From positions 1 to 37,729 of the IMG/VR virus record IMGVR_UViG_3300005827_000050: a stretch of 37,729 bases of DNA. One strand, given 5' to 3'. Of the stretch, positions 20,779-34,284 are shown piece by piece. The first letter of the stretch is position 1. Each line of letters begins with the position of its first letter. This DNA is from a virus. The notes under the pieces are model-generated. The model saw nothing but the letters and a program-made list of their open reading frames with translations. It was not told the DNA's origin and ran no database searches. Made by a program: the position numbers and the translations under genes.

Positions 20779-22011
20779 TTAAGTGAATGAGCGGGTTGTG
20801 ATCGATGCAGTTGCCCTATTTATTCCATATCGTCTCGCAACAAAATACCCAAATGAGTCGTTATAGTCATCGATAGAACCTGCTTGATTAAACTTCTCAG
20901 GCTCTCCGTTTTTATATACCTGCTGTTCTAATGCTTCCGTACCTTTTGGGCAGTTCTTTGTATTAATAAAATATCGGTCATGTGCTAATAATCCATTTAC
21001 GGAATTAACACGATCTTGTACTCTTCCATTTTGCGATGGAACTTCAATAGTGAATCCTGCATCACGTAATATTTGAATATCTGAACGTGTTGCATTTGAT
21101 CTCTCGCTCTTGCCTGAAGCATCAGGGAACATTATTATTTTGTTATTTGGGTAAATCTTTCTAATATTAGTTGGGATTGAAAAAGTATCATAACTCTCTA
21201 TTTCATTTACTCTTATTATAATATGATCGCGTATTACATGAATAGTTGATATACAAGCACCAACGTTGAAGTCCTGCCCGATATATAAAGTCTCATCCTC
21301 TTCAGCTTCAACATTTACATGGTGCTTTTTGCGGTTAAAATATGAATACACTGATCCACTTGTTAGGTTTACAAATCGACCTTTCATATATGCTTCGAGT
21401 AAATTTGGAGGGTATGATTTCTTTAAATCGTCTATGAAGTCAGCAGGTAGGTATGGATTATTTTCTGTCTCAGCTCTGATAATACGACCGATTTTCATTT
21501 TCTCGAATAGCTCATACGCTCCAGCAAATCCCTCAGGGGTTGTAGTATTGAACATTTGGCGCACGTTACCTTTACGCAAACGCCCTTGCAGCTTCTTATA
21601 TGCCATTAATACTACTTCACGCTTTACTGTGTCCATTTCATCTGTACCAATGAAAGCGGCATTTACCCCGATAAGTCTTTGCCAATTCTCTAATGATCTC
21701 ATTAATATTTTAGTCTCGCCATCTTCAAAACGTATTCTCAAGTTTGGTTGAGGTGATTTAATAAGCGTGTGTTCGATGTCATTGTTTTCCAAAAACGATG
21801 TCATATCAGGTATAAGAATATCGTGTAGTAATGGCGCGGTAGGCTCGAGAAGTATTCCAGTATGTCCGACGTTCTTCGAGGCTAAATCATAGGCTTTAGT
21901 TACAAATGCGAATGTCTTACCAGCTCCATATCCTGCAAGAAGCAATAAGTGACGGGTGAAGTCATCTTGCAGGAACTCTACTTGATGATCGAGTAGCTCA
22001 ATTTCTTCCAT
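20779..22011 (-). CDS. terL: terminase large subunit
   Basis: Walker A LLAGYGAGKT and Walker B-like AFIGTDEMD. 410 aa. Overlaps the small subunit gene. Confidence 0.9.
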   Translation of the reverse strand: MEEIELLDHQVEFLQDDFTRHLLLLAGYGAGKTFAFVTKAYDLASKNVGHTGILLEPTAPLLHDILIPDMTSFLENNDIEHTLIKSPQPNLRIRFEDGETKILMRSLENWQRLIGVNAAFIGTDEMDTVKREVVLMAYKKLQGRLRKGNVRQMFNTTTPEGFAGAYELFEKMKIGRIIRAETENNPYLPADFIDDLKKSYPPNLLEAYMKGRFVNLTSGSVYSYFNRKKHHVNVEAEEDETLYIGQDFNVGACISTIHVIRDHIIIRVNEIESYDTFSIPTNIRKIYPNNKIIMFPDASGKSERSNATRSDIQILRDAGFTIEVPSQNGRVQDRVNSVNGLLAHDRYFINTKNCPKGTEALEQQVYKNGEPEKFNQAGSIDDYNDSFGYFVARRYGINRATASITTRSFT

Positions 22012-22603
22012 TTTCTGCCATTATCTCACGTTTACGCTCTTCGCTCATAGGTTTAAAGCCGACATACTTTGTAACGGTCTGTTGTGCATTAGTAAGGTTT
22101 ATGTCTTGTTTTGGGGCGTGACGATCTGATACTTTTAGAACTACTGAAGCCTTATCTACTGTGTTCATAGCTCTCTCGTAATCACCAGCTTGTAAATCAG
22201 TCTCAATAACATTAGCCTCTTTCATCCCTTCACCAATGTTTGCGGTAGTGACCTTTTGCGCCTTGCCTCCCTCTATCAATTTCTTAACTCCATCCAAAAT
22301 AGAACCTGTTACGTCAAACACTTTTAATCGGTTGTTATCGTCATTAAATTCTTGTTCAAGTCTGTACTTTATAGCATTATCTATAGCCGAAATTTCAGCC
22401 GAACTTTTATTTAACTTTTTTGCTTTTTCAACAATCAACCCAGCTTCGACAATATGGGAGTTTGTTGGCTTTTCTTTTCCGATTATTTTACCCACCATTA
22501 CATCACTAATTTTATATGCTTTTGCTAACTCTGCTTTTGTATATTGTCCAGTGTTCCATTTTGCAATAATATTAATCTTTTGACGTTCTGTGAGTTTAGC
22601 CAT
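21998..22603 (-). CDS. terS: terminase small subunit
   Basis: 201 aa with an N-terminal HTH (QYTKAELAKAYKISDVMVGKII). Lies directly upstream of and overlapping terL. Confidence 0.7.
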   Translation of the reverse strand: MAKLTERQKINIIAKWNTGQYTKAELAKAYKISDVMVGKIIGKEKPTNSHIVEAGLIVEKAKKLNKSSAEISAIDNAIKYRLEQEFNDDNNRLKVFDVTGSILDGVKKLIEGGKAQKVTTANIGEGMKEANVIETDLQAGDYERAMNTVDKASVVLKVSDRHAPKQDINLTNAQQTVTKYVGFKPMSEERKREIMAENGRN

Positions 22604-22614
22604 TCCCCTACCCT

Positions 22615-22926
22615 CTAATCCACATAAAATAATAATCCATGCTCTTGTTTATCTTCATCAAACGTATTATCGCATACATGAGGAGTAATTGCGTGTACGG
22701 CTTCTACAAATGCAATTACACCGTCAATATTGTAATGATCGCTAATAAGTTGATAGATTAGGTTTATTTGAGGCGTTAGCTTATCAAGGTTTGAAGTGTA
22801 TAGTCTGTGTTCCATGATATATGAATGACTTTCTTTTGCACCACACATAATGCACGCCGTAGCAACCTTTGATAGGTCGTCGTTAAAAAGCTCTGATATA
22901 ACAAATAGCTTTTTTTGTGCGGTCAT
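22615..22926 (-). CDS. hypothetical protein (first gene of the late block)
   Basis: 103-aa ORF. No motif recognised. Confidence 0.55.
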   Translation of the reverse strand: MTAQKKLFVISELFNDDLSKVATACIMCGAKESHSYIMEHRLYTSNLDKLTPQINLIYQLISDHYNIDGVIAFVEAVHAITPHVCDNTFDEDKQEHGLLFYVD

Positions 22927-22986
22927 TCTCTAACCTAACCGACCATTTATTAAATCATCTTTTAAAAATATAATTTTTTTCATAAC

Positions 22987-23033
22987 TTCACCTTTTAAAT
23001 AATCTGAAATGGACGCACCGTAAAAAAGGTGAA
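22987..23033. repeat. 10-bp inverted repeat upstream of the late operon
   Basis: TTCACCTTTT (22987-22996) pairs with AAAAGGTGAA (23024-23033), with a 27-nt spacer. Confidence 0.6.
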
Positions 23034-23307
23034 TTAAAAACGATGCGCCTATTTCAAACTATTCTGACCTCTTAACCTATCTTGCGAAGCTACCATTGGC
23101 ACCTTATCAGAAAAGAGGAACCTTTTGTGAAACACACTATGCAGTATCGGATACCGTAAAGGTAGATCATACATCCCGCTATTCATACTGCGTTTATTTA
23201 CGGACGTTTGCTCCGATGTGTGCTTCATTAAAAGTTCCGACGCTCACCTTTCGTGAGTTTGTCGATGCAACCCCCGATTACTCAGTGATTGCGTATGTGA
23301 TATTATA

Positions 23308-23451
23308 CTATTTTTTTGCTTTATTTGCGCGATATTTTTTCATTTTACAAGAGTTAGAGCAAAACTTTTTTACTTTTAACCCTACAATTGTTTTTCCACA
23401 TACCCCACATGATGAATATACTATTTTACGGAATTGATGAATACTACTCAT
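23308..23451 (-). CDS. 47-aa zinc-ribbon protein (CxxC ... FCSxxC, TRASH/FCS-like)
   Basis: Hand translation: MSSIHQFRKIVYSSCGVCGKTIVGLKVKKFCSNSCKMKKYRANKAKK. The ATG overlaps the stop of the IbrA-like gene (ATGA). Below the ORF-track cutoff. Confidence 0.6.
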   Translation of the reverse strand: MSSIHQFRKIVYSSCGVCGKTIVGLKVKKFCSNSCKMKKYRANKAKK

Positions 23452-24650
23452 AATATTCCTTTTTTTGATTTTTTAATCTCTTTAAATCTGATATATGCAT
23501 CTGATTTAGGTTGTGACTGTCCTAATCCTTTACACCAATAATCATTTCTCAAAATACACTTAGCCATTCTTCTCCACGATGGTGCCCATTGTTTTGCCTC
23601 AAGTTCTGCTGGCACTTCATCAGGTATGGTAATATAACCTCTGTCTTGCCACGACTTGATAAACTTTTTAAATCTATCTTTGTAATGCATACCTGTTTTC
23701 CTTGGCAGTGTTTGTAATAACAAATTTGTAAAGCTCTCCCATGTGTGACCGTGTGGTTTTGATATCTTATTATATCCTGTCATATTTCCACTTTCTTGAA
23801 TATATAAAGCTCCACTATTTGCACCATTTACACGGTTTACTACTTTTCCCCACGTTTCAGGCTCTAAGATATGATATAACCATAAGCCTTGACGCTGATC
23901 GTCTCCGTATGGCTGGCATAGGCGTTGCTGTGATAATTTTACACCTGCCATATTCATTTTGTCGTAAATCTCATTATGTCCTAATGAGTTAAATTTACCA
24001 TGAAAACGCCAAATATCTTCTGTTTTCCAGTCATAAATAGGGTAAACATTATAAAGGTTGTCTTCTACTTTAGAAGTCCAGTGATAATCGTTAAACATAC
24101 CATCAATTTTATATGAAGTAATAGCACGATAACGGTGTAGGCTTTCATCTGCACGAATACCAATAAACGCAGCTGTTGGCTGATCTCCTCCGTACCATTC
24201 ACCAAACAACACCATAAACTCTTCAAACTCCATTTTATCAATAAAAAATGGGTAATCTTCTGCTACTTTTGCTTCTTTTGGTTTTTGTCTTACCCAAATA
24301 TCTTTCTTTTCTTCTTCCCAACAGCACCAGCGAGGATCGTAATTTGTAAGCGCATTTCTAAGCAATAATGGAACGCATACCCAATGTAAATCTATTACGT
24401 CTTTGTATTCTTCTATCATGTAGTGAATATGACGTATAGTATCATCGTATTGAGCTTCAAGGTCAATAATTAATAATCCAACAGTACGATTTCTTTTTCT
24501 TGCTTCTTGCAATACTAAATGAGTCATTACCGAACTGTCTTTACCTCCTGAAAAAGAGATATAGATATTATTAAAACCGTCAAAAATATTACTTACACGC
24601 TCTTTTGATGCAGTATATACATCAATATTTTTATATAATTTGGTTCTCAT
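23448..24650 (-). CDS. IbrA-like PAPS reductase-family PP-loop protein with C-terminal extension (DUF3440-like)
   Basis: PP-loop SFSGGKDSSVM, then IIDLEAQYDDT. 400 aa, the size and layout of IbrA-type proteins. Its start abuts the ParB-like gene stop (24650). Confidence 0.75.
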   Translation of the reverse strand: MRTKLYKNIDVYTASKERVSNIFDGFNNIYISFSGGKDSSVMTHLVLQEARKRNRTVGLLIIDLEAQYDDTIRHIHYMIEEYKDVIDLHWVCVPLLLRNALTNYDPRWCCWEEEKKDIWVRQKPKEAKVAEDYPFFIDKMEFEEFMVLFGEWYGGDQPTAAFIGIRADESLHRYRAITSYKIDGMFNDYHWTSKVEDNLYNVYPIYDWKTEDIWRFHGKFNSLGHNEIYDKMNMAGVKLSQQRLCQPYGDDQRQGLWLYHILEPETWGKVVNRVNGANSGALYIQESGNMTGYNKISKPHGHTWESFTNLLLQTLPRKTGMHYKDRFKKFIKSWQDRGYITIPDEVPAELEAKQWAPSWRRMAKCILRNDYWCKGLGQSQPKSDAYIRFKEIKKSKKGIL

Positions 24651-25825
24651 TAGTATAGCTCCGACTGACGAAATGGTTTTGCTTCTTCCATTGATACTTC
24701 ATCACGCCCATTATTTTTTAGCCAAATGTTAAGATATTTTAGTGCCATATTATCAGCACGCAACTGCTCATATTCGTTAAGTAAAAACCAACCGGCTCTA
24801 TATGTTGCAGGTATTCCAGTTGCATAACAAACAGAAGCTTGACCAAGCCATGCAATACGGTTAAATGCAATATTTGTTAGATTTTGCTCGCATGAATATT
24901 TCCAATTATGTACAATATAATTTAATGCCTCTTCAAACTTATTTATGTCTTTTAAAAAGTTTGCGAATTTTTGTTCCGCTTCTTCTTTTTTCATTCCGTC
25001 AACTGAGGTATTAAAAAACCCTGCGGCAAAACATTCCCACTTATCATATGTGTGAAAAATACGGTCATAAGAAGCATTAACTGTATTCCTGAGATTTAAC
25101 CGTTCCATTTCCATTTCTGTAACTTCATCTGTTAAATCTTCCCATGCTTCAAAATTAGCCTCGGTAACATCCCAAGACATAGAAAACTCTTCATCTTTAA
25201 ATAAGTCTTGAAGCCCTGTAATTTGGCAAAGTCTTAAAACTTCATCCTCATCCATCCCAAGCTCTTTACAAATACGAGAATTAGCCCAATTTCTATTTTT
25301 AAGCTCAACAACAATGTCAGACATTGCGTCAACTTTATGCTTTCCTCTTGCTCTGTTATGCCGAATTGTTGAAGCAATACGATCATTTTTATTTTCACGA
25401 TCTGAAGCCACTGCAACAATAGGAAGATAACCGTGAATTCTACTTTGAATTTCATCGCACTCTTTACCTACTCTGTGACGGTGAAAACCATCAATTACCT
25501 CATGATCTACTTTTTCGCTGTTAGACCATGTAACAATAGGCTGTGTATACCCATCGGAAGCAATAGATAGTCTTAATAGCTCCATTTCAGGTGGTGCTAC
25601 CGTATTAGGGTTATAGTCATTAGCCCCAACAGTAGTATTTTTAACCCATTGCACTAAATCTACTGGCTCAGACTTAAAAGGACTAATTTCATGTATTAAA
25701 ACACGCATTAAATTAATACAATCAACTTTTGCATCTAGCTCTAAGTTTTTTAACTTTTCTAGTAAGCATCTAAGCTCAATCTCTACATGAGATAATACAC
25801 CTTGTTCTGCATATTCAAACTTCAT
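24650..25825 (-). CDS. IbrB-like ParB/Srx-fold nuclease-domain protein with unassigned C-terminal domain
   Basis: VIDGFHRHRV and RHNRARGKH motifs. The ATG at 25825 follows AAGGTGG (the track start at 25867 is TTG). The last roughly 170 aa (DKWECFAAGFF...AWLGQASVCYATGIP...) are unassigned. Confidence 0.7.
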   Translation of the reverse strand: MKFEYAEQGVLSHVEIELRCLLEKLKNLELDAKVDCINLMRVLIHEISPFKSEPVDLVQWVKNTTVGANDYNPNTVAPPEMELLRLSIASDGYTQPIVTWSNSEKVDHEVIDGFHRHRVGKECDEIQSRIHGYLPIVAVASDRENKNDRIASTIRHNRARGKHKVDAMSDIVVELKNRNWANSRICKELGMDEDEVLRLCQITGLQDLFKDEEFSMSWDVTEANFEAWEDLTDEVTEMEMERLNLRNTVNASYDRIFHTYDKWECFAAGFFNTSVDGMKKEEAEQKFANFLKDINKFEEALNYIVHNWKYSCEQNLTNIAFNRIAWLGQASVCYATGIPATYRAGWFLLNEYEQLRADNMALKYLNIWLKNNGRDEVSMEEAKPFRQSELY

Positions 25826-25887
25826 AAATCCACCTTTATTTAAGTTACGCAAATAATAACGTAACAAATATTAAACAACGCTTTAAT

Positions 25888-26277
25888 TTAAGCTAATTCC
25901 TTAATTTCAATCATAATTCCAACTCTAAAATAATATTGTTTCCGTGCAATCACGTAGCATACTTGCGAATCGTCAATATAAGCAACTCTATTTAAAGCAT
26001 CTTTAACCCCTTTTTGGAGATTATCAATATCAGGCTTTGACGTATGCCATAGTGTTTCTTCTTTTTTCTTTTTGCTCCATGACTTGGGTTGTTCAAAATA
26101 AAAGTCAACATACATGGCTATCGGTTTATCGGATACTTTAAACTTCGACTTTACGATCAAAGCGATAGCTTTTTTATAGTTTGTGTACTTTGGGTCGTTG
26201 TATGTGCCGTTACGTGTAACTCTTGGTCGTGGTGCCGGAATTGGTTGAAGTGGTACAAACACTTTATGATTTTCCAT
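25888..26277 (-). CDS. rusA: RusA-family Holliday junction resolvase
   Basis: PIPAPRPRVTRNG ... KPDIDNLQKGVKDALNRVAYIDDSQV is the RusA signature. Confidence 0.85.
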   Translation of the reverse strand: MENHKVFVPLQPIPAPRPRVTRNGTYNDPKYTNYKKAIALIVKSKFKVSDKPIAMYVDFYFEQPKSWSKKKKEETLWHTSKPDIDNLQKGVKDALNRVAYIDDSQVCYVIARKQYYFRVGIMIEIKELA

Positions 26278-26599
26278 CTAAATACTCCTCATAATATTTC
26301 TGTGCTATTGCGCGTTGTTCTTCAATCGGATATACTTCACGCCACTTTTTAGGTGAACCGTGAGGCGAAAGATGGTCGCTGTATTTGTGGTGAAACTCAC
26401 ACAACGGCAGAACTTCGTGATCGTTCTTAACGTCGCTAGAGTGTTCCTTTATATGATGAAGCTCAATTTGGGGATTACCGCATACTATACACCCGAAGCT
26501 TTGAGAGTGCATCCACGATAGAAACGCTTTATCTTTTAATGGCTTCGGCTTCAGTGTTCCGTTCTTTTGTAATTGTTCTGATTTTGATAATCCGATCAT
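26264..26599 (-). CDS. DUF968/Ref-like HNH-fold protein
   Basis: CIVCGNPQIELHHIK...KNDHEVLPLCEFHH...HG pattern. The ATG at 26599 is ATGA-coupled to an upstream micro-ORF. Alternative starts exist at 26638 and 26653. Confidence 0.6.
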   Translation of the reverse strand: MIGLSKSEQLQKNGTLKPKPLKDKAFLSWMHSQSFGCIVCGNPQIELHHIKEHSSDVKNDHEVLPLCEFHHKYSDHLSPHGSPKKWREVYPIEEQRAIAQKYYEEYLDGKS

Positions 26600-26682
26600 T
26601 CGATTTCCACACCGTTTAATTTTAATATTGTGTAGCATATAGCTACTACACAAAAAAATAAGTACATATATTTTTCATTCAT
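26596..26682 (-). CDS. 28-aa hydrophobic micro-ORF
   Basis: MNEKYMYLFFCVVAICYTILKLNGVEIE. ATGA-coupled at both ends. Confidence 0.3.
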   Translation of the reverse strand: MNEKYMYLFFCVVAICYTILKLNGVEIE

Positions 26683-28577: not shown

Positions 28578-29564
28578 TCATAGCGTAAACCCTCCATCAT
28601 TAAAAAGTTTTTCTTCCGGTTCTTTCATTTCGTACTTTGTTTCTACTGCCATTGCGTTCCACCCTTTATAGCCTTGCGTTCGTCCATACTGATCTAGTGA
28701 AAGCTCGACTTTGAAAGTTCGCTCATCTTGTCGATTTTTTGTGCATCGAAGCAAACGCTTCTTTTCATCTTTTGGGTCAATGATATAAAACCACATCATA
28801 TCTGCATCGTACTTCTGATCTCCGCCATTTTTTAGAACCATTCTACTATCCTTAATCGCCTCATCACTCATTTGATTAATCAAGAAAATTATGATGTCTT
28901 TCTCTTGTGCTAACTTTGAAAGCTTAGAAGATATTAACGCCGTTTTTTGATGATCTTTACCATCCCCGTCCACTTCTATTTTCATTCTTGAATCAATAGC
29001 AAAGAATTTAATCCCATCTCGTGCGTATAGAGTTATCTCCATTACAAGCAATTCAAGCCCTCGTGAGTGTGAATCAATGATTAGGTTATCTTTCTGCACT
29101 TCTTCTTTTAGTTTGCGTTCTAACCTATGCCCTATTCGTTTTACGCCCATTTCAAAGTTAAAGAACACACATTTTGAGTATTTTGATATGTTTGCAAGGA
29201 TATCAAGAATTAGAGTTGTTTTGCCTGCACCGCTTTCCCCTGCAAACTGAATAAATGTTCCCGTCTCAATTCCCCCTGATATTCCCATACGTCTATCTTC
29301 ATCACTTGCCAATTCCATATCGATAGCGTGTATTCCAATTGCATATCGTGGAATGTGAGGAAGATTAGAAACAATCTCGATAAGGTTACGTGCTGATATT
29401 CCGTTTCTTTTTTCTTCTTGATCGATCATATCAAGCAGCAATAATTTTGATTGATATAACTCACGTTTCAATTTTATAACTGTATCGTGATCGTCTGCTC
29501 TCTCTGCATTTTGAATATGCAAAGTTAAATTGCGTGTCTTTGCTTGTAGTTCTTCAAATTTCAT
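28578..29564 (-). CDS. DnaB-like replicative helicase, C-terminal RecA-fold ATPase domain
   Basis: Walker A GESGAGKTT. The FNFEMG and IDS...LINQ layout matches the DnaB C-terminal domain. Confidence 0.8.
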   Translation of the reverse strand: MKFEELQAKTRNLTLHIQNAERADDHDTVIKLKRELYQSKLLLLDMIDQEEKRNGISARNLIEIVSNLPHIPRYAIGIHAIDMELASDEDRRMGISGGIETGTFIQFAGESGAGKTTLILDILANISKYSKCVFFNFEMGVKRIGHRLERKLKEEVQKDNLIIDSHSRGLELLVMEITLYARDGIKFFAIDSRMKIEVDGDGKDHQKTALISSKLSKLAQEKDIIIFLINQMSDEAIKDSRMVLKNGGDQKYDADMMWFYIIDPKDEKKRLLRCTKNRQDERTFKVELSLDQYGRTQGYKGWNAMAVETKYEMKEPEEKLFNDGGFTL

Positions 29565-29889
29565 AAACAGCCTTTCTTTTTTTAGCTTGTAGCATTACGA
29601 GATACGTTTTCACAAATTCATATCCTCCCGCCGTCTGTGTTGTTATTTCTAACCACTTTGATACATTCATAGTGTTTTTCTTTACCATTGCTTCACGCAC
29701 CGTTATCTCGTCGATTATAAAGTGTTTAGCGTTTAACTCTTTTATCGTTTGTAAAACTTGCTTATGAAACGAATCGCTGAATAAACTTTCATCAAAATTG
29801 AAGTCGGTAACTTTTAACTCTTTGCCATCACATCGAGAATGAAAAGCCCAAAGCAGTGATGATAATATGGATTGTTCTATTGCTATCAT
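29554..29889 (-). CDS. DnaB N-terminal-domain-like protein (separate polypeptide)
   Basis: IEQSILSSLLW...FSDSFHKQVLQTIKEL...IDEITVREAM resembles the DnaB N-terminal domain. The ATG at 29889 is ATGA-coupled upstream. Overlaps the ATPase gene by 11 nt. Confidence 0.6.
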   Translation of the reverse strand: MIAIEQSILSSLLWAFHSRCDGKELKVTDFNFDESLFSDSFHKQVLQTIKELNAKHFIIDEITVREAMVKKNTMNVSKWLEITTQTAGGYEFVKTYLVMLQAKKRKAVYEI

Positions 29890-30533
29890 CCTACCGTCCA
29901 TTCTTTAGGTTTATTATCACCTAACTCTTTTTTTACCCATTCAAGCTTGATACTCTGCCACTCTTTGTTTTCCATTAGCTCTATAAGGTCATGTAATGAG
30001 TATCCATCCTCTAAACAAACTTTTAACGAGTCAAGATACAATTTTATTGCTTTTATTGTTTTAACAGGCTTTCTGATTGTTTTACGGTATGCAATGAATT
30101 TGTTAATGGTTTCTAATGCTCTATCATTTGGAGTTCCGTATGCTCTTGAAAATTCAGAGATAAGCGAAGCGTATGTATTAATTGTTTTATTAGTCTGTAT
30201 ATTATCTTTAGTCTCTTGCTGTTTTAGTAAGGGGGTCTTACTATTTTGATAAGGGGGTATTACTAAATTAGTAAGGGTTACTATTCTAGTATGGTTGCGT
30301 GAACCGTTCTCTATTTGTATATCAATATAACCCATTTCTTTTAGGTCATTTAGGTTTCTTGATACATTCTCTTTAGTGATACCTATCAATTCTGCAAAGT
30401 GATTATTTGAGGCAAAGCACCCACTATCTAAACTACAAAGCTGCTCTATTTCAGCAAGCATAAACTTCTGTGATTGGTTTAGATTTTTATCGTGCATAAT
30501 CTCGATAGAGACTGTAATGAACTTAGTAGCCAT
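29886..30533 (-). CDS. replication initiator-like winged-helix protein
   Basis: The N-terminal HTH/wHTH (FAELIGITKENVSRNLNDLKEMGYI) resembles phage O/DnaD-type initiators. The gene contains iterons and precedes the helicase genes. Confidence 0.65.
   Translation of the reverse strand: MATKFITVSIEIMHDKNLNQSQKFMLAEIEQLCSLDSGCFASNNHFAELIGITKENVSRNLNDLKEMGYIDIQIENGSRNHTRIVTLTNLVIPPYQNSKTPLLKQQETKDNIQTNKTINTYASLISEFSRAYGTPNDRALETINKFIAYRKTIRKPVKTIKAIKLYLDSLKVCLEDGYSLHDLIELMENKEWQSIKLEWVKKELGDNKPKEWTVG
30226..30282. repeat. three phased palindromic iterons (candidate ori)
   Basis: AGTAAGGGGGTCTTACT (30226-30242), GATAAGGGGGTATTACT (30248-30264) and AGTAAGGGTTACT (30270-30282). Their starts are exactly 22 bp apart. 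Confidence 0.65.
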
Positions 30534-32423: not shown

Positions 32424-32499
32424 ATATGCCTATGTCTCAAGGTGACGAGTTAGACTCCAAATCTGACTGTGATAGGTTCGATTCCTATGGTATATGCCA
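32424..32499 (+). tRNA. tRNA-Trp (anticodon CCA), CCA end encoded
   Basis: Manual cloverleaf. Acceptor 32424-32430 with 32489-32495. D stem TGTC/GACG with GG in the loop. Anticodon stem TTAGA/TCTGA with loop CTCCAAA. 5-nt variable loop. T arm ATAGG-TTCGATT-CCTAT. Discriminator G plus CCA. Total 76 nt. The A-U rich acceptor and short D loop are atypical. Confidence 0.75.
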
Positions 32500-33014: not shown

Positions 33015-33235
33015 TACGAATATTTGAACCAAACTACGGAGCCGATGCGGACGATCTGCGTGGTATCCCTATGACGTTTTACGACTTAGAACCATGCGAC
33101 ACACCCGAAATCATCCGACAACTCAAAGAAGAGATTGAAAGCGGAAACGAAGATGATGTTATCGTCGTAAGCTTGGAATGTCAAGAGACTGGCGATATGA
33201 TTGATTTTGATATTATTGTAAAGGATTTTTTATGA
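33011..33235 (+). CDS. small highly acidic protein
   Basis: MIRIFEPNYGADADD... 74 aa with about 20 Asp/Glu and 5 Lys/Arg by my count. The ATG at 33011 is ATGA-coupled upstream. Confidence 0.55.
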   Translation: MIRIFEPNYGADADDLRGIPMTFYDLEPCDTPEIIRQLKEEIESGNEDDVIVVSLECQETGDMIDFDIIVKDFL

Positions 33236-34284
33236 ATTTGTTAAAAAAACCAAGCAATCGCCAAGCGTTTGCGAAGATTGGGTTGTACGGTGATGCAGGT
33301 AGCGGTAAAACTACAACAGCATCTAAAATTGCTATTGGTCTCTCTAACTACTCAGGCAAGCGTGTAGCGTTCTTTGATACAGAGGGAGGTTCTGATTACC
33401 TTATCAAAACTTTCGATGATGCAGGGGTGGAGCTATTCGTTTCTGATATTAGCCGAGACTTTAAGTATTTAATGGCGTTTATGGTTGAGTGTGTGCAAGA
33501 GAAAATTGACGTTGTAATCGTTGACTCTATTACGCATATTTGGAAGCAACTCCAAAGCGATTATTTGAATGAGTTGAATGATCGCAACAAGAAAAACGGG
33601 CGACGTGCTAGATATGCGCTTGAGTTTCAGGACTGGCGATTCATTAAAGACACATGGCAGACGTTTACTGATATGTATCTAACAAGTCCGATGCACGTTA
33701 TTATCTGCGGTCGTATGGCTCAAATTTACGATTACCAAGAAAATTCATCCGGCAAAAAAGAGCTTGTTACAAACGGAACAAAGATGAGCACCGAAAAAGA
33801 GTTAGGCTATGAGCCGTCTTTACTTATTGAAATGATGAAAGAGTTTGACAGTGGGAGCAATCGCCTAATCAATAAGGCTATAGTTGAAAAAGACCGAACC
33901 GATACCCTAAACGGTAAAATCTTCTATATGCCAAACTTTGAGACATTCAAGCCTCATTTTGATTTCTTGAATATCGGCGGTAAGCACTTGGATATTCGCC
34001 CGAAAGAGGGAAATACTTTCGGCGGTGAAATCGGTGATGATACTTTCGGTCAAGAGAAACGATCGCGTGAAATTCAATGCGAAGAGATTCAAGGGCTTAT
34101 GTTGAAATACTACCCGTCAAGATCGGCGGAAGATGCGAAAGCAAAAGCGGAACTATTGGAAAAATTCTTTGAAACTCGATCATGGACTAAAGTCGAGAGT
34201 ATGCGTTCGGCACAACTTAAAGAGAAATTTGAGCTTATGAAAGACTATTTCGATACGGAACAGCACATTTCAAAAGCTGAATAG
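33232..34284 (+). CDS. Sak4-like / AAA_24-family RecA-fold ATPase
   Basis: Walker A GLYGDAGSGKTT, then FFDTEGG and a VVIVDSITH Walker B-like motif. 350 aa. Confidence 0.7.
   Translation: MNLLKKPSNRQAFAKIGLYGDAGSGKTTTASKIAIGLSNYSGKRVAFFDTEGGSDYLIKTFDDAGVELFVSDISRDFKYLMAFMVECVQEKIDVVIVDSITHIWKQLQSDYLNELNDRNKKNGRRARYALEFQDWRFIKDTWQTFTDMYLTSPMHVIICGRMAQIYDYQENSSGKKELVTNGTKMSTEKELGYEPSLLIEMMKEFDSGSNRLINKAIVEKDRTDTLNGKIFYMPNFETFKPHFDFLNIGGKHLDIRPKEGNTFGGEIGDDTFGQEKRSREIQCEEIQGLMLKYYPSRSAEDAKAKAELLEKFFETRSWTKVESMRSAQLKEKFELMKDYFDTEQHISKAE

Follow-up and report, generated by a model that had tools for sequence, protein, structure and literature searches.

X, a separable third component tied to the phage IbrA/IbrB gene pair and a candidate subunit of a DNA-directed complex

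During DNA phosphorothioation, the ParB-superfamily protein DndB pairs with DndC, a protein resembling reductases of 3'-phosphoadenosine 5'-phosphosulfate (PAPS) (PMC10853773), while in type 4 bacteriophage exclusion (BREX) and Ssp systems, a PAPS-reductase-like enzyme is fused to DUF4007, an all-alpha partner that binds DNA (PMC12839542). ParB/Srx folds bind CTP, ATP, or GTP and include the small-molecule kinases SerK and Srx (PMC12704722). A vibrio phage PAPS-domain–Dam fusion, together with a neighboring gene, overcomes host Dnd (10.1101/2021.05.05.442762; cited in PMC13551039). Here, we describe an operon with a comparable pairing, that of IbrB with IbrA, in a 37,729-nucleotide stretch of viral DNA (positions 1 to 37,729 of IMG/VR record IMGVR_UViG_3300005827_000050), referred to as the window. 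Three overlapping minus-strand open reading frames (ORFs) fill positions 23308 to 25825 and encode an IbrB-like protein of 391 amino acids (aa), an IbrA-like protein of 400 aa, and a putative zinc-ribbon protein of 47 aa. We found that the C-terminal domain of the IbrB-like protein, designated X, is a separable third component tied to IbrA/IbrB.

X accompanies IbrA and IbrB

The IbrB part of the 391-aa protein aligned with the 214-aa IbrB of Escherichia phage PhiR5_2 (51% identity over 189 aa, E = 6e-68, covering residues 30 to 214 of the latter), and a ParB-like plus putative helix-turn-helix (HTH) stretch is common to both. The alignment stops at "...SWDVT," the final residues of PhiR5_2 IbrB, which is where a linker and X start, such that the window protein (IbrB-X) adds ~170 residues. 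Its gene is organized as follows.

24650..25825, minus strand: IbrB-X gene, 391 aa, ATG start; ParB/Srx-like domain, HTH, acidic linker, and X
25331..25690, minus strand: probable ParB/Srx-type nucleotide-binding domain of IbrB (residues ~46 to 165), with DGFHRHR and RHNRARGKH motifs and matches to PHROG ParB-like families
25190..25330, minus strand: predicted HTH of IbrB (residues ~166 to 212), containing SRICKELGMDEDEVLRLCQITGL; inferred from the sequence, with no profile match
25070..25189, minus strand: acidic linker (residues 213 to 252), isoelectric point (pI) 4.05, net charge -9
24653..25069, minus strand: X domain (residues 253 to 391), all-alpha and unannotated, defined by homolog searches, an AlphaFold2 (AF2) model, and gene context

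A preliminary description of the locus had presented these residues as a single unassigned domain of ~170 aa and an unexplained extra part of the protein. The region is indeed unannotated, but it comprises the acidic linker, which differs in length and sequence among relatives, followed by a ~140-aa core (X), and this core is not an oddity of one protein but a conserved, separable component in hundreds of loci.

When residues 226 to 391 were used as the query, 284 homologs were recovered, none of which carried a Pfam domain; roughly half stood alone at ~140 aa, and the others were IbrB fusions, often cut by contig ends. A profile search of 1.84 billion cluster representatives returned 775 X clusters (50% identity) at E ≤ 1e-3. 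The best 150 of these 775 comprised 120 free-standing proteins, 16 proteins in which X is joined to ~90 aa, 8 IbrB-X proteins, and 6 proteins of 176 to 249 aa with extra unassigned sequence; an unrelated enzyme domain joined to X was not found in this set. The ~90-aa piece is the last third of DUF3440, namely, the IbrA "tail" (W..RGY..IPDE.P..L...APSW/YR..A..L.ND..L..LG.S). The sole outside domain encountered was in P0124 (316 aa; locus L115), which combines an N-terminal part of Terminase_2 with the IbrB HTH helix, linker, and X. Since this protein sits on a single 1.85-kb metagenome contig and its junction falls inside the IbrB HTH, it probably arose by recombination or as an assembly chimera, although it is noteworthy given the frequent adjacency of the module to terminase genes.

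A set of 29 genome loci, each from a metagenome-assembled genome, spanned very diverse phyla of bacteria and archaea; within it, X accompanied IbrB and IbrA wherever the flanking DNA sufficed and was fused to IbrB in ~19 loci. A free ~140-aa X gene lies between IbrB and IbrA in L001, L002, L015, L021, L022, L030, and L119 to L121; the cultured phages Mwe-JY13 and Amjad_SA show this arrangement. For L119 to L121, precomputed Pfam domains identify the gene downstream of X as PAPS_reduct/DUF3440, and the upstream gene has a ParB_N match in L119 and L120; its counterpart in L121 encodes 206 aa with no Pfam match on record. X is instead found at the N terminus of IbrA in L029, as a 524-aa fusion. 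Of 80 viral contigs picked by IbrA similarity, 76 carried full IbrB-X immediately before IbrA, and in the other 4 the contig end falls within or just short of this position. Among 50,697 deposited phage genomes, 135 records contained IbrA-like genes and 3 contained X. Cultured phages rarely have X-bearing systems, which abound in uncultured viral contigs.

We also observed a four-gene variant with the order IbrA, Ectoine_synth cupin, IbrB, and X (L003:2279-5139, L028:1448-4506, and L122:95-3130). In L028 and L122, the IbrA tail occurs a second time, appended to X, and in L003 a tail-like piece is a separate overlapping ORF. The cupin may explain why several phages carry the GenBank label "ectoine synthase/ParB multidomain protein."

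AF2 gave a confident all-alpha model of X, with a predicted local distance difference test (pLDDT) score of 91.4 and a predicted template modeling (pTM) score of 0.86. Foldseek found no relative of this model among PDB folds (best E = 3.7, template modeling score ≤ 0.34), a sequence-profile search of the PDB reached only E = 0.29, and there was no match in Pfam, NCBIfam, PHROGs, or PADLOC; the sole match in BFVD was a homologous 116-aa phage protein, A0A649V0K8. Positions W14, E15, G20, W59, N73, A76, G79, and A112 are near-universal in the 150 cluster representatives (fragment numbering; add 249 for IbrB numbering), and the family signature reads H..x..WE....G, then W..SCE..L.N...NR.AWLGQA. 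Relative to the closest relative, L033, the ratio of nonsynonymous to synonymous substitution rates (dN/dS) was 0.040 for X, 0.038 for the ParB/HTH part, and 0.039 for IbrB-X as a whole. X and the remainder of IbrB thus experience equally strong purifying selection.

Two functions for X were considered and rejected. Its three cysteines are present in just 61%, 87%, and 72% of the 150 representatives, and this lack of universality argues against thiol or metal-cluster chemistry and thus against X as a cysteine persulfide relay or metal-cluster domain. With a median pI of 6.1, X is also not a basic DNA-binding domain. Although the IbrA/IbrB gene pairing was already known, X is new with respect to the libraries and literature searched, both as a large unannotated family with no recognizable fold relative and as the defining element of a three-component branch with Rosetta-stone fusions to both partners.

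The partner proteins and the operon

The remaining features of the operon are listed below.

25830..25837, minus strand: Shine-Dalgarno sequence AAAGGTGG, 4 nucleotides (nt) upstream of the IbrB-X ATG; read from the sequence
23448..24650, minus strand: IbrA gene, 400 aa; PP-loop PAPS-reductase-fold domain and DUF3440 (Pfam, phrog_2302)
23958..24566, minus strand: PAPS-reductase-fold PP-loop domain of IbrA (residues 29 to 231), with SGGKDS at 34 to 39 (Pfam, AF2, Foldseek)
23451..23945, minus strand: DUF3440 region of IbrA (residues 236 to 400), with Cys245 and Cys373; top-conserved motifs QQRLCQPYGDDQR..GLWLYHILEP and LRNDYWCKGLG
23496..23660, minus strand: C-terminal "tail" module of IbrA, W..RGY..IPDE.P..LE...APSWRR....LRNDYWCKGLG; fused directly after X in other lineages
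23308..23451, minus strand: 47-aa zinc-ribbon ORF, CxxC-x12-CSxxC plus basic tail, pI 10.2; 4-nt ATGA overlap with the IbrA stop

The three genes are translationally coupled, as first proposed, with the IbrA ATG sharing 1 nt with the IbrB-X stop codon (TAATG) and the zinc-ribbon ORF overlapping the IbrA stop (ATGA). An alternative upstream TTG at 25867 would extend IbrB-X to 405 aa; however, the protein of the closest relative is also 391 aa. Every motif quoted in the preliminary description was located at its expected residues, including DGFHRHRV (112 to 119), RHNRARGKH (155 to 163), DKWECFAAGFF (261 to 271), and NRIAW...AGWF (322 to 347) in IbrB-X and C15xxC18 and F30-C31-S32-x-x-C35 in the 47-aa protein.

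Its view of IbrA as a PP-loop protein of the PAPS reductase family with a long C-terminal extension of the IbrA/DUF3440 type was borne out as well. Both Pfam domains scored above their gathering cutoffs (PF01507, PAPS_reduct, E = 2.4e-15, 57.4 bits against 22.5; PF11922, DUF3440, E = 1.2e-36, 126.6 bits against 25), phrog_2302 matched at 1.8e-87 (PHROG category "moron, auxiliary metabolic gene"), and IbrA was 41% identical to PhiR5_2 IbrA over its full length (E = 8e-110). The AF2 model is confident at residues 10 to 230, and its best PDB matches by Foldseek were CysH (6vpu, 3e-7), CysD (1zun), adenosine 5'-phosphosulfate (APS) reductase (2goy), and the PAPS domain of flavin adenine dinucleotide (FAD) synthase (8rom), the CysH, CysD, and APS reductase matches having E values of 3e-7 to 1e-5 over ~230 columns. 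The tRNA thiolases TtuA and NcsA, MesJ/TilS, and LarE ranked lower, and the structural matches were confined to the N-terminal domain, with none for the DUF3440 part. Single-sequence and profile searches of the PDB with IbrA and IbrB gave only marginal CysD and APS reductase matches.

A true CysH, CysD, or DndC was rejected as an identity for IbrA, since its scores against the NCBIfam equivalog models fell well under the cutoffs: 24.4 against 154 for PRK02090, 19.6 against 254 for TIGR02057, 17.4 against 165 for TIGR00434, 29 against 195 for the CysD model, and 20.7 against 290.4 for DndC (TIGR03183). PADLOC returned a weak DndC match (7.8e-9, residues 162 to 254) and a weak BrxP match. IbrA is a member of the IbrA family (COG3969-type PAPS_reduct plus DUF3440), with the PP-loop SGGKDS and a PAPS-reductase-like fold; a search for this family returned at least 8,000 candidates, all at E ≤ 1e-10. 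C110, C245, and C373 are kept in at least 93% of 95 IbrA sequences and in the E. coli phage IbrA, and the dN/dS of IbrA relative to L033 was 0.021.

IbrB matched the "ParB-like" family phrog_2159 (6.2e-66, residues 45 to 231), whereas its Pfam ParB_N match (residues 60 to 123) of 17.4 bits was under the 26.3-bit cutoff; the family member P0121 reached 29.7 bits. Given these profile and sequence matches, both proteins belong to the IbrA and IbrB families, and the earlier equation with the IbrB/IbrA pair holds; the ParB/Srx domain assigned earlier is probable in view of phrog_2159, the DGFHRHR motif, and the identity to PhiR5_2 IbrB. IbrB-X as the ParB of a ParABS partition system was rejected, since there was no NCBIfam match, no ParA-like gene among the annotated neighbors, and no repeated parS-type site in 22500-26400. 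One IbrB-X relative, P0128 (637 aa), appears to contain an intein at the conserved DG[YF]|TQPIV motif of the ParB domain (window ~25546-25554), with Cys1, TPDHP (TxxH), LAGFLDGEG (LAGLIDADG homing endonuclease), and HN|T motifs; this call is a motif reading, with no Pfam match.

The 47-aa zinc-ribbon ORF was said to have been missed by the ORF track. The ORF is real, but the gene caller of the Joint Genome Institute did call it (P0391). In the L033 homolog, the reading frame, the ATGA coupling, and all 4 cysteines are preserved (28 of 44 residues identical), and the cysteine codons have undergone synonymous changes while 16 of the 44 residues differ. The ORF is therefore a real coding sequence, albeit a fast-evolving one, with a nonsynonymous rate (dN) relative to L033 of 0.283, ~7-fold that of IbrA. 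The preliminary description had counted this ORF as a part of the system and had tied that claim to its conservation in relatives, yet it proved not to be conserved there. It is present in one of the four closest relatives (IbrA 94 to 95% identical) and in none of ~110 other loci. In L116 to L118, IbrA is followed by DUF968/HNH, RusA, or other genes; the ORF is also absent from L034 and L035, where IbrA is 83% and 80% identical, and a search of a 5.8-billion-protein database returned only the ORF itself. With its only homolog in L033, the ORF was rejected as a conserved subunit; its absence from near relatives, other loci, and the protein database indicates that it is no component of the system but a separate, lineage-specific neighbor.

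The ribbon resembles, in register, the N terminus of lambda NinG/Rap, which likewise has a CxxC-x(11-12)-CSxxC ribbon and a basic helix (pairwise hhalign E = 0.002, probability 13%), and NinG genes (representative Pfam match, 3.9e-35) lie directly 3' of IbrA in a dozen related loci. Pfam NinG (PF05766) gave no match at E ≤ 0.1, and a DUF2116 "treble clef" match scored 18.8 bits against a cutoff of 26.8, although the 4 cysteines are kept in the sole homolog despite 36% divergence. A stand-alone or truncated NinG-type ribbon is plausible from these motifs; since tblastn found neither a counterpart nor a remnant of the NinG nuclease domain downstream, truncation is a hypothesis. In L116 (4194-4271), a 25-aa ORF, MRAKKCKSSECGLTFTPDRPMQKDL, lies directly 3' of IbrA, is ATGA coupled, and looks like a decayed NinG N terminus.

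The window is a temperate-phage-like element that carries the operon at the end of its early replication/recombination block. All of the neighboring genes share the orientation of the operon. Those upstream are, in order, an O-like replication initiator (29886-30533), a DnaB-like helicase (28578-29564), an HNH/DUF968-like gene (26264-26653), and RusA (25888-26277). Downstream are a 382-nt noncoding gap, a 103-aa ORF, a 201-aa ORF that occupies the small-terminase position but matches no family (21998-22603), and TerL (20779-22011). The operon thus closes the leftward early block just ahead of the terminase genes, as the preliminary description had it. Near-identity DNA searches of deposited phages with the operon region and with 25 kb of the window returned no match, exact-sequence queries with IbrB-X and the 47-aa protein likewise retrieved no contig, and scans of 22400-26400 for promoters, terminators, and repeats found nothing above chance and no parS-like repeats.

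Several other features of the surroundings were observed. The DUF968/HNH-like gene and RusA, which are upstream of IbrB-X/IbrA in the window, are downstream in the close relative L117 (2602-3308), and this flipped order indicates that the module shuffles position in the nin-like region between near-identical phages. On the minus strand, the gap at 22927-23307 folds beyond shuffled controls (minimum free energy, -113.2 versus -82.2 ± 5.5 kcal/mol; z = -5.6) and includes a long hairpin at ~22997-23064. Rfam yielded no family for it, only spurious microRNA-hairpin matches, and L033 has coding genes where the window has the gap, which is not conserved there. Candidate functions for the gap are a late promoter with a terminator, a packaging site, and a small RNA. 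A tRNA-Trp (CCA) gene (32424-32499, plus strand) separates the leftward early block from rightward genes that include a Sak4-like/phrog_1366 ATPase (33232-34284); it may be a phage tRNA or a marker of the attachment-site region.

A putative three-subunit complex and its alternatives

X is found fused to IbrB, to IbrA, or to the IbrA tail, a classic sign that the proteins are subunits of one complex. In the model that we favor, the ParB/Srx-type nucleoside triphosphate (NTP)-dependent domain and HTH of IbrB would direct the system to DNA. X would serve as an adaptor or specificity subunit that docks on IbrA, probably via the C-terminal tail of DUF3440, and, being tethered to IbrB by the acidic linker in the window protein, would bridge IbrB to IbrA. 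IbrA would then carry out the ATP-dependent adenylation of a DNA phosphate or carbonyl group, which a nucleophile would replace. Replication and recombination genes consistently surround the module. At ~110 loci, its commonest neighbors are Prim-Pol, ERF, DUF3127, NinG, and a DnaA_C HTH protein, with RusA also among them; the window counterparts are RusA, the helicase, and the O-like initiator. Since the operon would be expressed together with such genes, the likeliest target is the phage's own replicating DNA, and the purpose would be a covalent modification that shields phage DNA from host defenses, with a logic like that of DndB/DndC or SspD. The preliminary description had likewise suggested nucleic-acid modification, possibly for self-protection, which would be in keeping with this gene context and with the vibrio phage PAPS-domain protein that defeats Dnd.

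We place the combined proposal, a three-component IbrB-X-IbrA complex that performs DNA-targeted modification or counter-defense, slightly below an even chance. The fusions make a three-subunit complex by itself considerably more likely than this, whereas DNA-modification chemistry by itself is a tentative suggestion against which the odds lean somewhat. Doubtful in its full detail is the version in which X is a fold-novel subunit linking IbrB, as an NTP-gated DNA clamp of the ParB type, to IbrA, as an adenylating PP-loop enzyme, so that the complex writes a new covalent backbone or base modification during replication as protection against host immunity.

Several observations weigh against the favored model. 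The top-conserved, nearly invariant segments of IbrA, including Cys245 and Cys373, are modeled at low confidence (pLDDT < 50 for residues 233 to 295 and 369 to 389; window ~23766-23954 and 23484-23546), a pattern consistent with loops that order only upon binding of a cofactor, partner, or substrate. IbrA falls far under the DndC and CysH equivalog cutoffs given above; X is slightly acidic and lacks a universal cysteine, hence offering no hint of chemistry; and the physical complex would be deduced from the fusions alone. The flanks of the ~110 loci contain no cysteine desulfurase as a sulfur donor or other modification-pathway gene, and equivalents of DndD, DndE, SspB, and SspC were not found in the neighborhoods. 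As the preliminary description also held, there is no established biochemistry for the pair: searches for IbrA/IbrB, DUF3440, COG3969, and ybdN/ybdM found no mechanistic study, and the literature searched contains no biochemical or genetic test of the chemistry of IbrA/IbrB-type proteins. The original IbrAB phenotype is reportedly activation of prophage gene expression rather than DNA modification, and the inherited annotation is "co-activator of prophage gene expression."

That annotation, which derives from E. coli IbrAB work, underlies the alternative that fares best, though we regard it as unlikely, in which IbrB (an HTH plus an NTP-switch ParB fold of the KorB/Noc type) activates phage late genes directly or via IbrA and would act here on a promoter or terminator region just downstream. 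The HTH is kept in IbrB, the window operon lies in a lambda Q-like position between RusA and the structured 382-nt gap and terminase genes, and the module adjoins packaging genes in L117, L119/L120, FCL-2, and XCL1123 as well. However, the commonest downstream genes at the ~110 loci are those of replication and recombination (Prim-Pol in 31 loci, NinG, DUF6291) rather than packaging, indicating that the position at an early/late junction is not conserved. The structured gap is likewise not conserved in L033, and it is not obvious what a PP-loop enzyme held at a dN/dS of 0.02 would do in a pure transcription factor.

It is also conceivable, although improbable, that IbrA modifies RNA (e.g., a tRNA base, as do TilS, TtcA, TtuA, and NcsA) or a free nucleotide or cofactor (as do flavin mononucleotide adenylyltransferase and CysD, which share its fold family), with IbrB serving as a ParB/Srx-type kinase or NTPase. 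TtuA/NcsA-type enzymes have 3-Cys [4Fe-4S] sites, which the three conserved IbrA cysteines resemble, and Foldseek also matched TtuA, NcsA, MesJ/TilS, LarE, and FAD synthase, but these tRNA enzymes rank below the sulfate-activation branch that supplies the top matches, and profile scans detected no RNA-binding domain (THUMP, PUA, etc.). Small-molecule chemistry is hinted at by the Ectoine_synth cupin of one variant and by the ParB/Srx folds that are SerK and Srx kinases or bind ATP, GTP, or CTP (PMC12704722); against either reading stand the HTH in IbrB and the location of the module among DNA replication and recombination genes.

Less probable again is a prophage-carried defense or modification system of the Dnd/Ssp/BREX type 4 kind that marks resident DNA and excludes incoming phages. 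Such a system would account for the weak PADLOC matches of IbrA to DndC (7.8e-9) and BrxP and would parallel both DndB/DndC and the combination of a PAPS-reductase-like enzyme with all-alpha DUF4007 in BREX type 4 and Ssp (PMC12839542). Yet neither the window nor the flanks of the ~110 loci contain a restriction/effector partner, BrxC, PglZ, BrxL, SspA to SspC, or DndA, DndD, or DndE, and the genes run in the same direction as the lytic replication block and are translationally coupled with it, unlike a lysogeny "moron." The DndC equivalog score (20.7 against 290) and the lack of a fold match between X and solved structures also argue against it.

Finally, it is scarcely credible that IbrA is an auxiliary metabolic gene encoding a true PAPS/APS reductase that boosts host sulfur assimilation, a reading used in virome papers and encouraged by the PAPS_reduct match, the top structural match to CysH, and the PHROG category, since the CysH, CysD, and PAPS reductase equivalogs score 17 to 29 bits against cutoffs of 154 to 413 (a score range that includes DndC), the C terminus is DUF3440 with WCKGLG rather than the CysH tail with its ECGLH motif, IbrA has a ParB-HTH protein and X as obligate partners, and no other sulfur-assimilation genes are nearby.

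These distinctions matter because IbrA/IbrB pairs are very common, occurring in E. coli K-12 (ybdNM), 135 deposited phage genomes, and archaeal viruses. IbrA-type genes are routinely labeled "PAPS reductase," with a risk of misannotation, and phage PAPS reductase genes in general are counted as sulfur auxiliary genes in virome studies. X, with 775 clusters and a confident predicted fold but no PDB relative or Pfam/PHROG entry, is a gap in the databases. X is strongly constrained, characterizes a large family branch, and occurs joined to IbrA or to IbrB; it thus predicts a ternary complex, and its fusions point to the DUF3440 tail as the likely docking site. The natural fusions also offer constructs for expression and structural studies. 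Should the DNA-modification reading be true, it would represent a new phage counter-defense chemistry, and if an X-coupled DNA-modification machine exists, biochemistry would be assigned to the very large IbrA/IbrB (YbdN/YbdM) family.

Comparison with known systems

PhiR5_2 IbrA has the same PAPS_reduct plus DUF3440 architecture as the window IbrA, and in both cases the pair is adjacent, overlapping, and phage borne. The gene order differs, being IbrA then IbrB in PhiR5_2 and IbrB then IbrA in the window. Furthermore, PhiR5_2 IbrB stops at 214 aa and no X gene is annotated at its locus, whereas the window IbrB carries the linker and X. YbdN/YbdM of E. coli K-12 are chromosomal paralogs of the IbrA/IbrB pair. 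The PAPS-domain–Dam protein of a Vibrio crassostreae podophage (Piel et al., 10.1101/2021.05.05.442762) is a phage PAPS-domain protein that, together with a neighboring gene, was shown to let the phage escape a DNA-modification-based defense, but it combines PAPS with Dam and, unlike the window system, lacks DUF3440, a ParB partner, and X; the two are compared by their shared domain only.

Among host systems, DndB/DndC resemble the window pair in that a ParB-superfamily protein accompanies a PP-loop ATP pyrophosphatase of the PAPS-reductase fold; the Dnd enzyme acts on DNA (PMC10853773), as IbrA is predicted to do, and SspD and BrxP (BREX type 4) have an all-alpha accessory, DUF4007/SspB, that is often fused to the enzyme (PMC12839542), X being all-alpha too. 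In contrast to Dnd, Ssp, and BREX, the window locus has no DndA, DndD, DndE, SspA to SspC, BrxC, PglZ, or BrxL; the DUF3440 of IbrA is not a DndC feature; and the setting is a lytic-cycle phage operon rather than a host defense island. By analogy with these systems, IbrA/IbrB-X would most likely work like DndB/DndC or SspD while standing outside those families.

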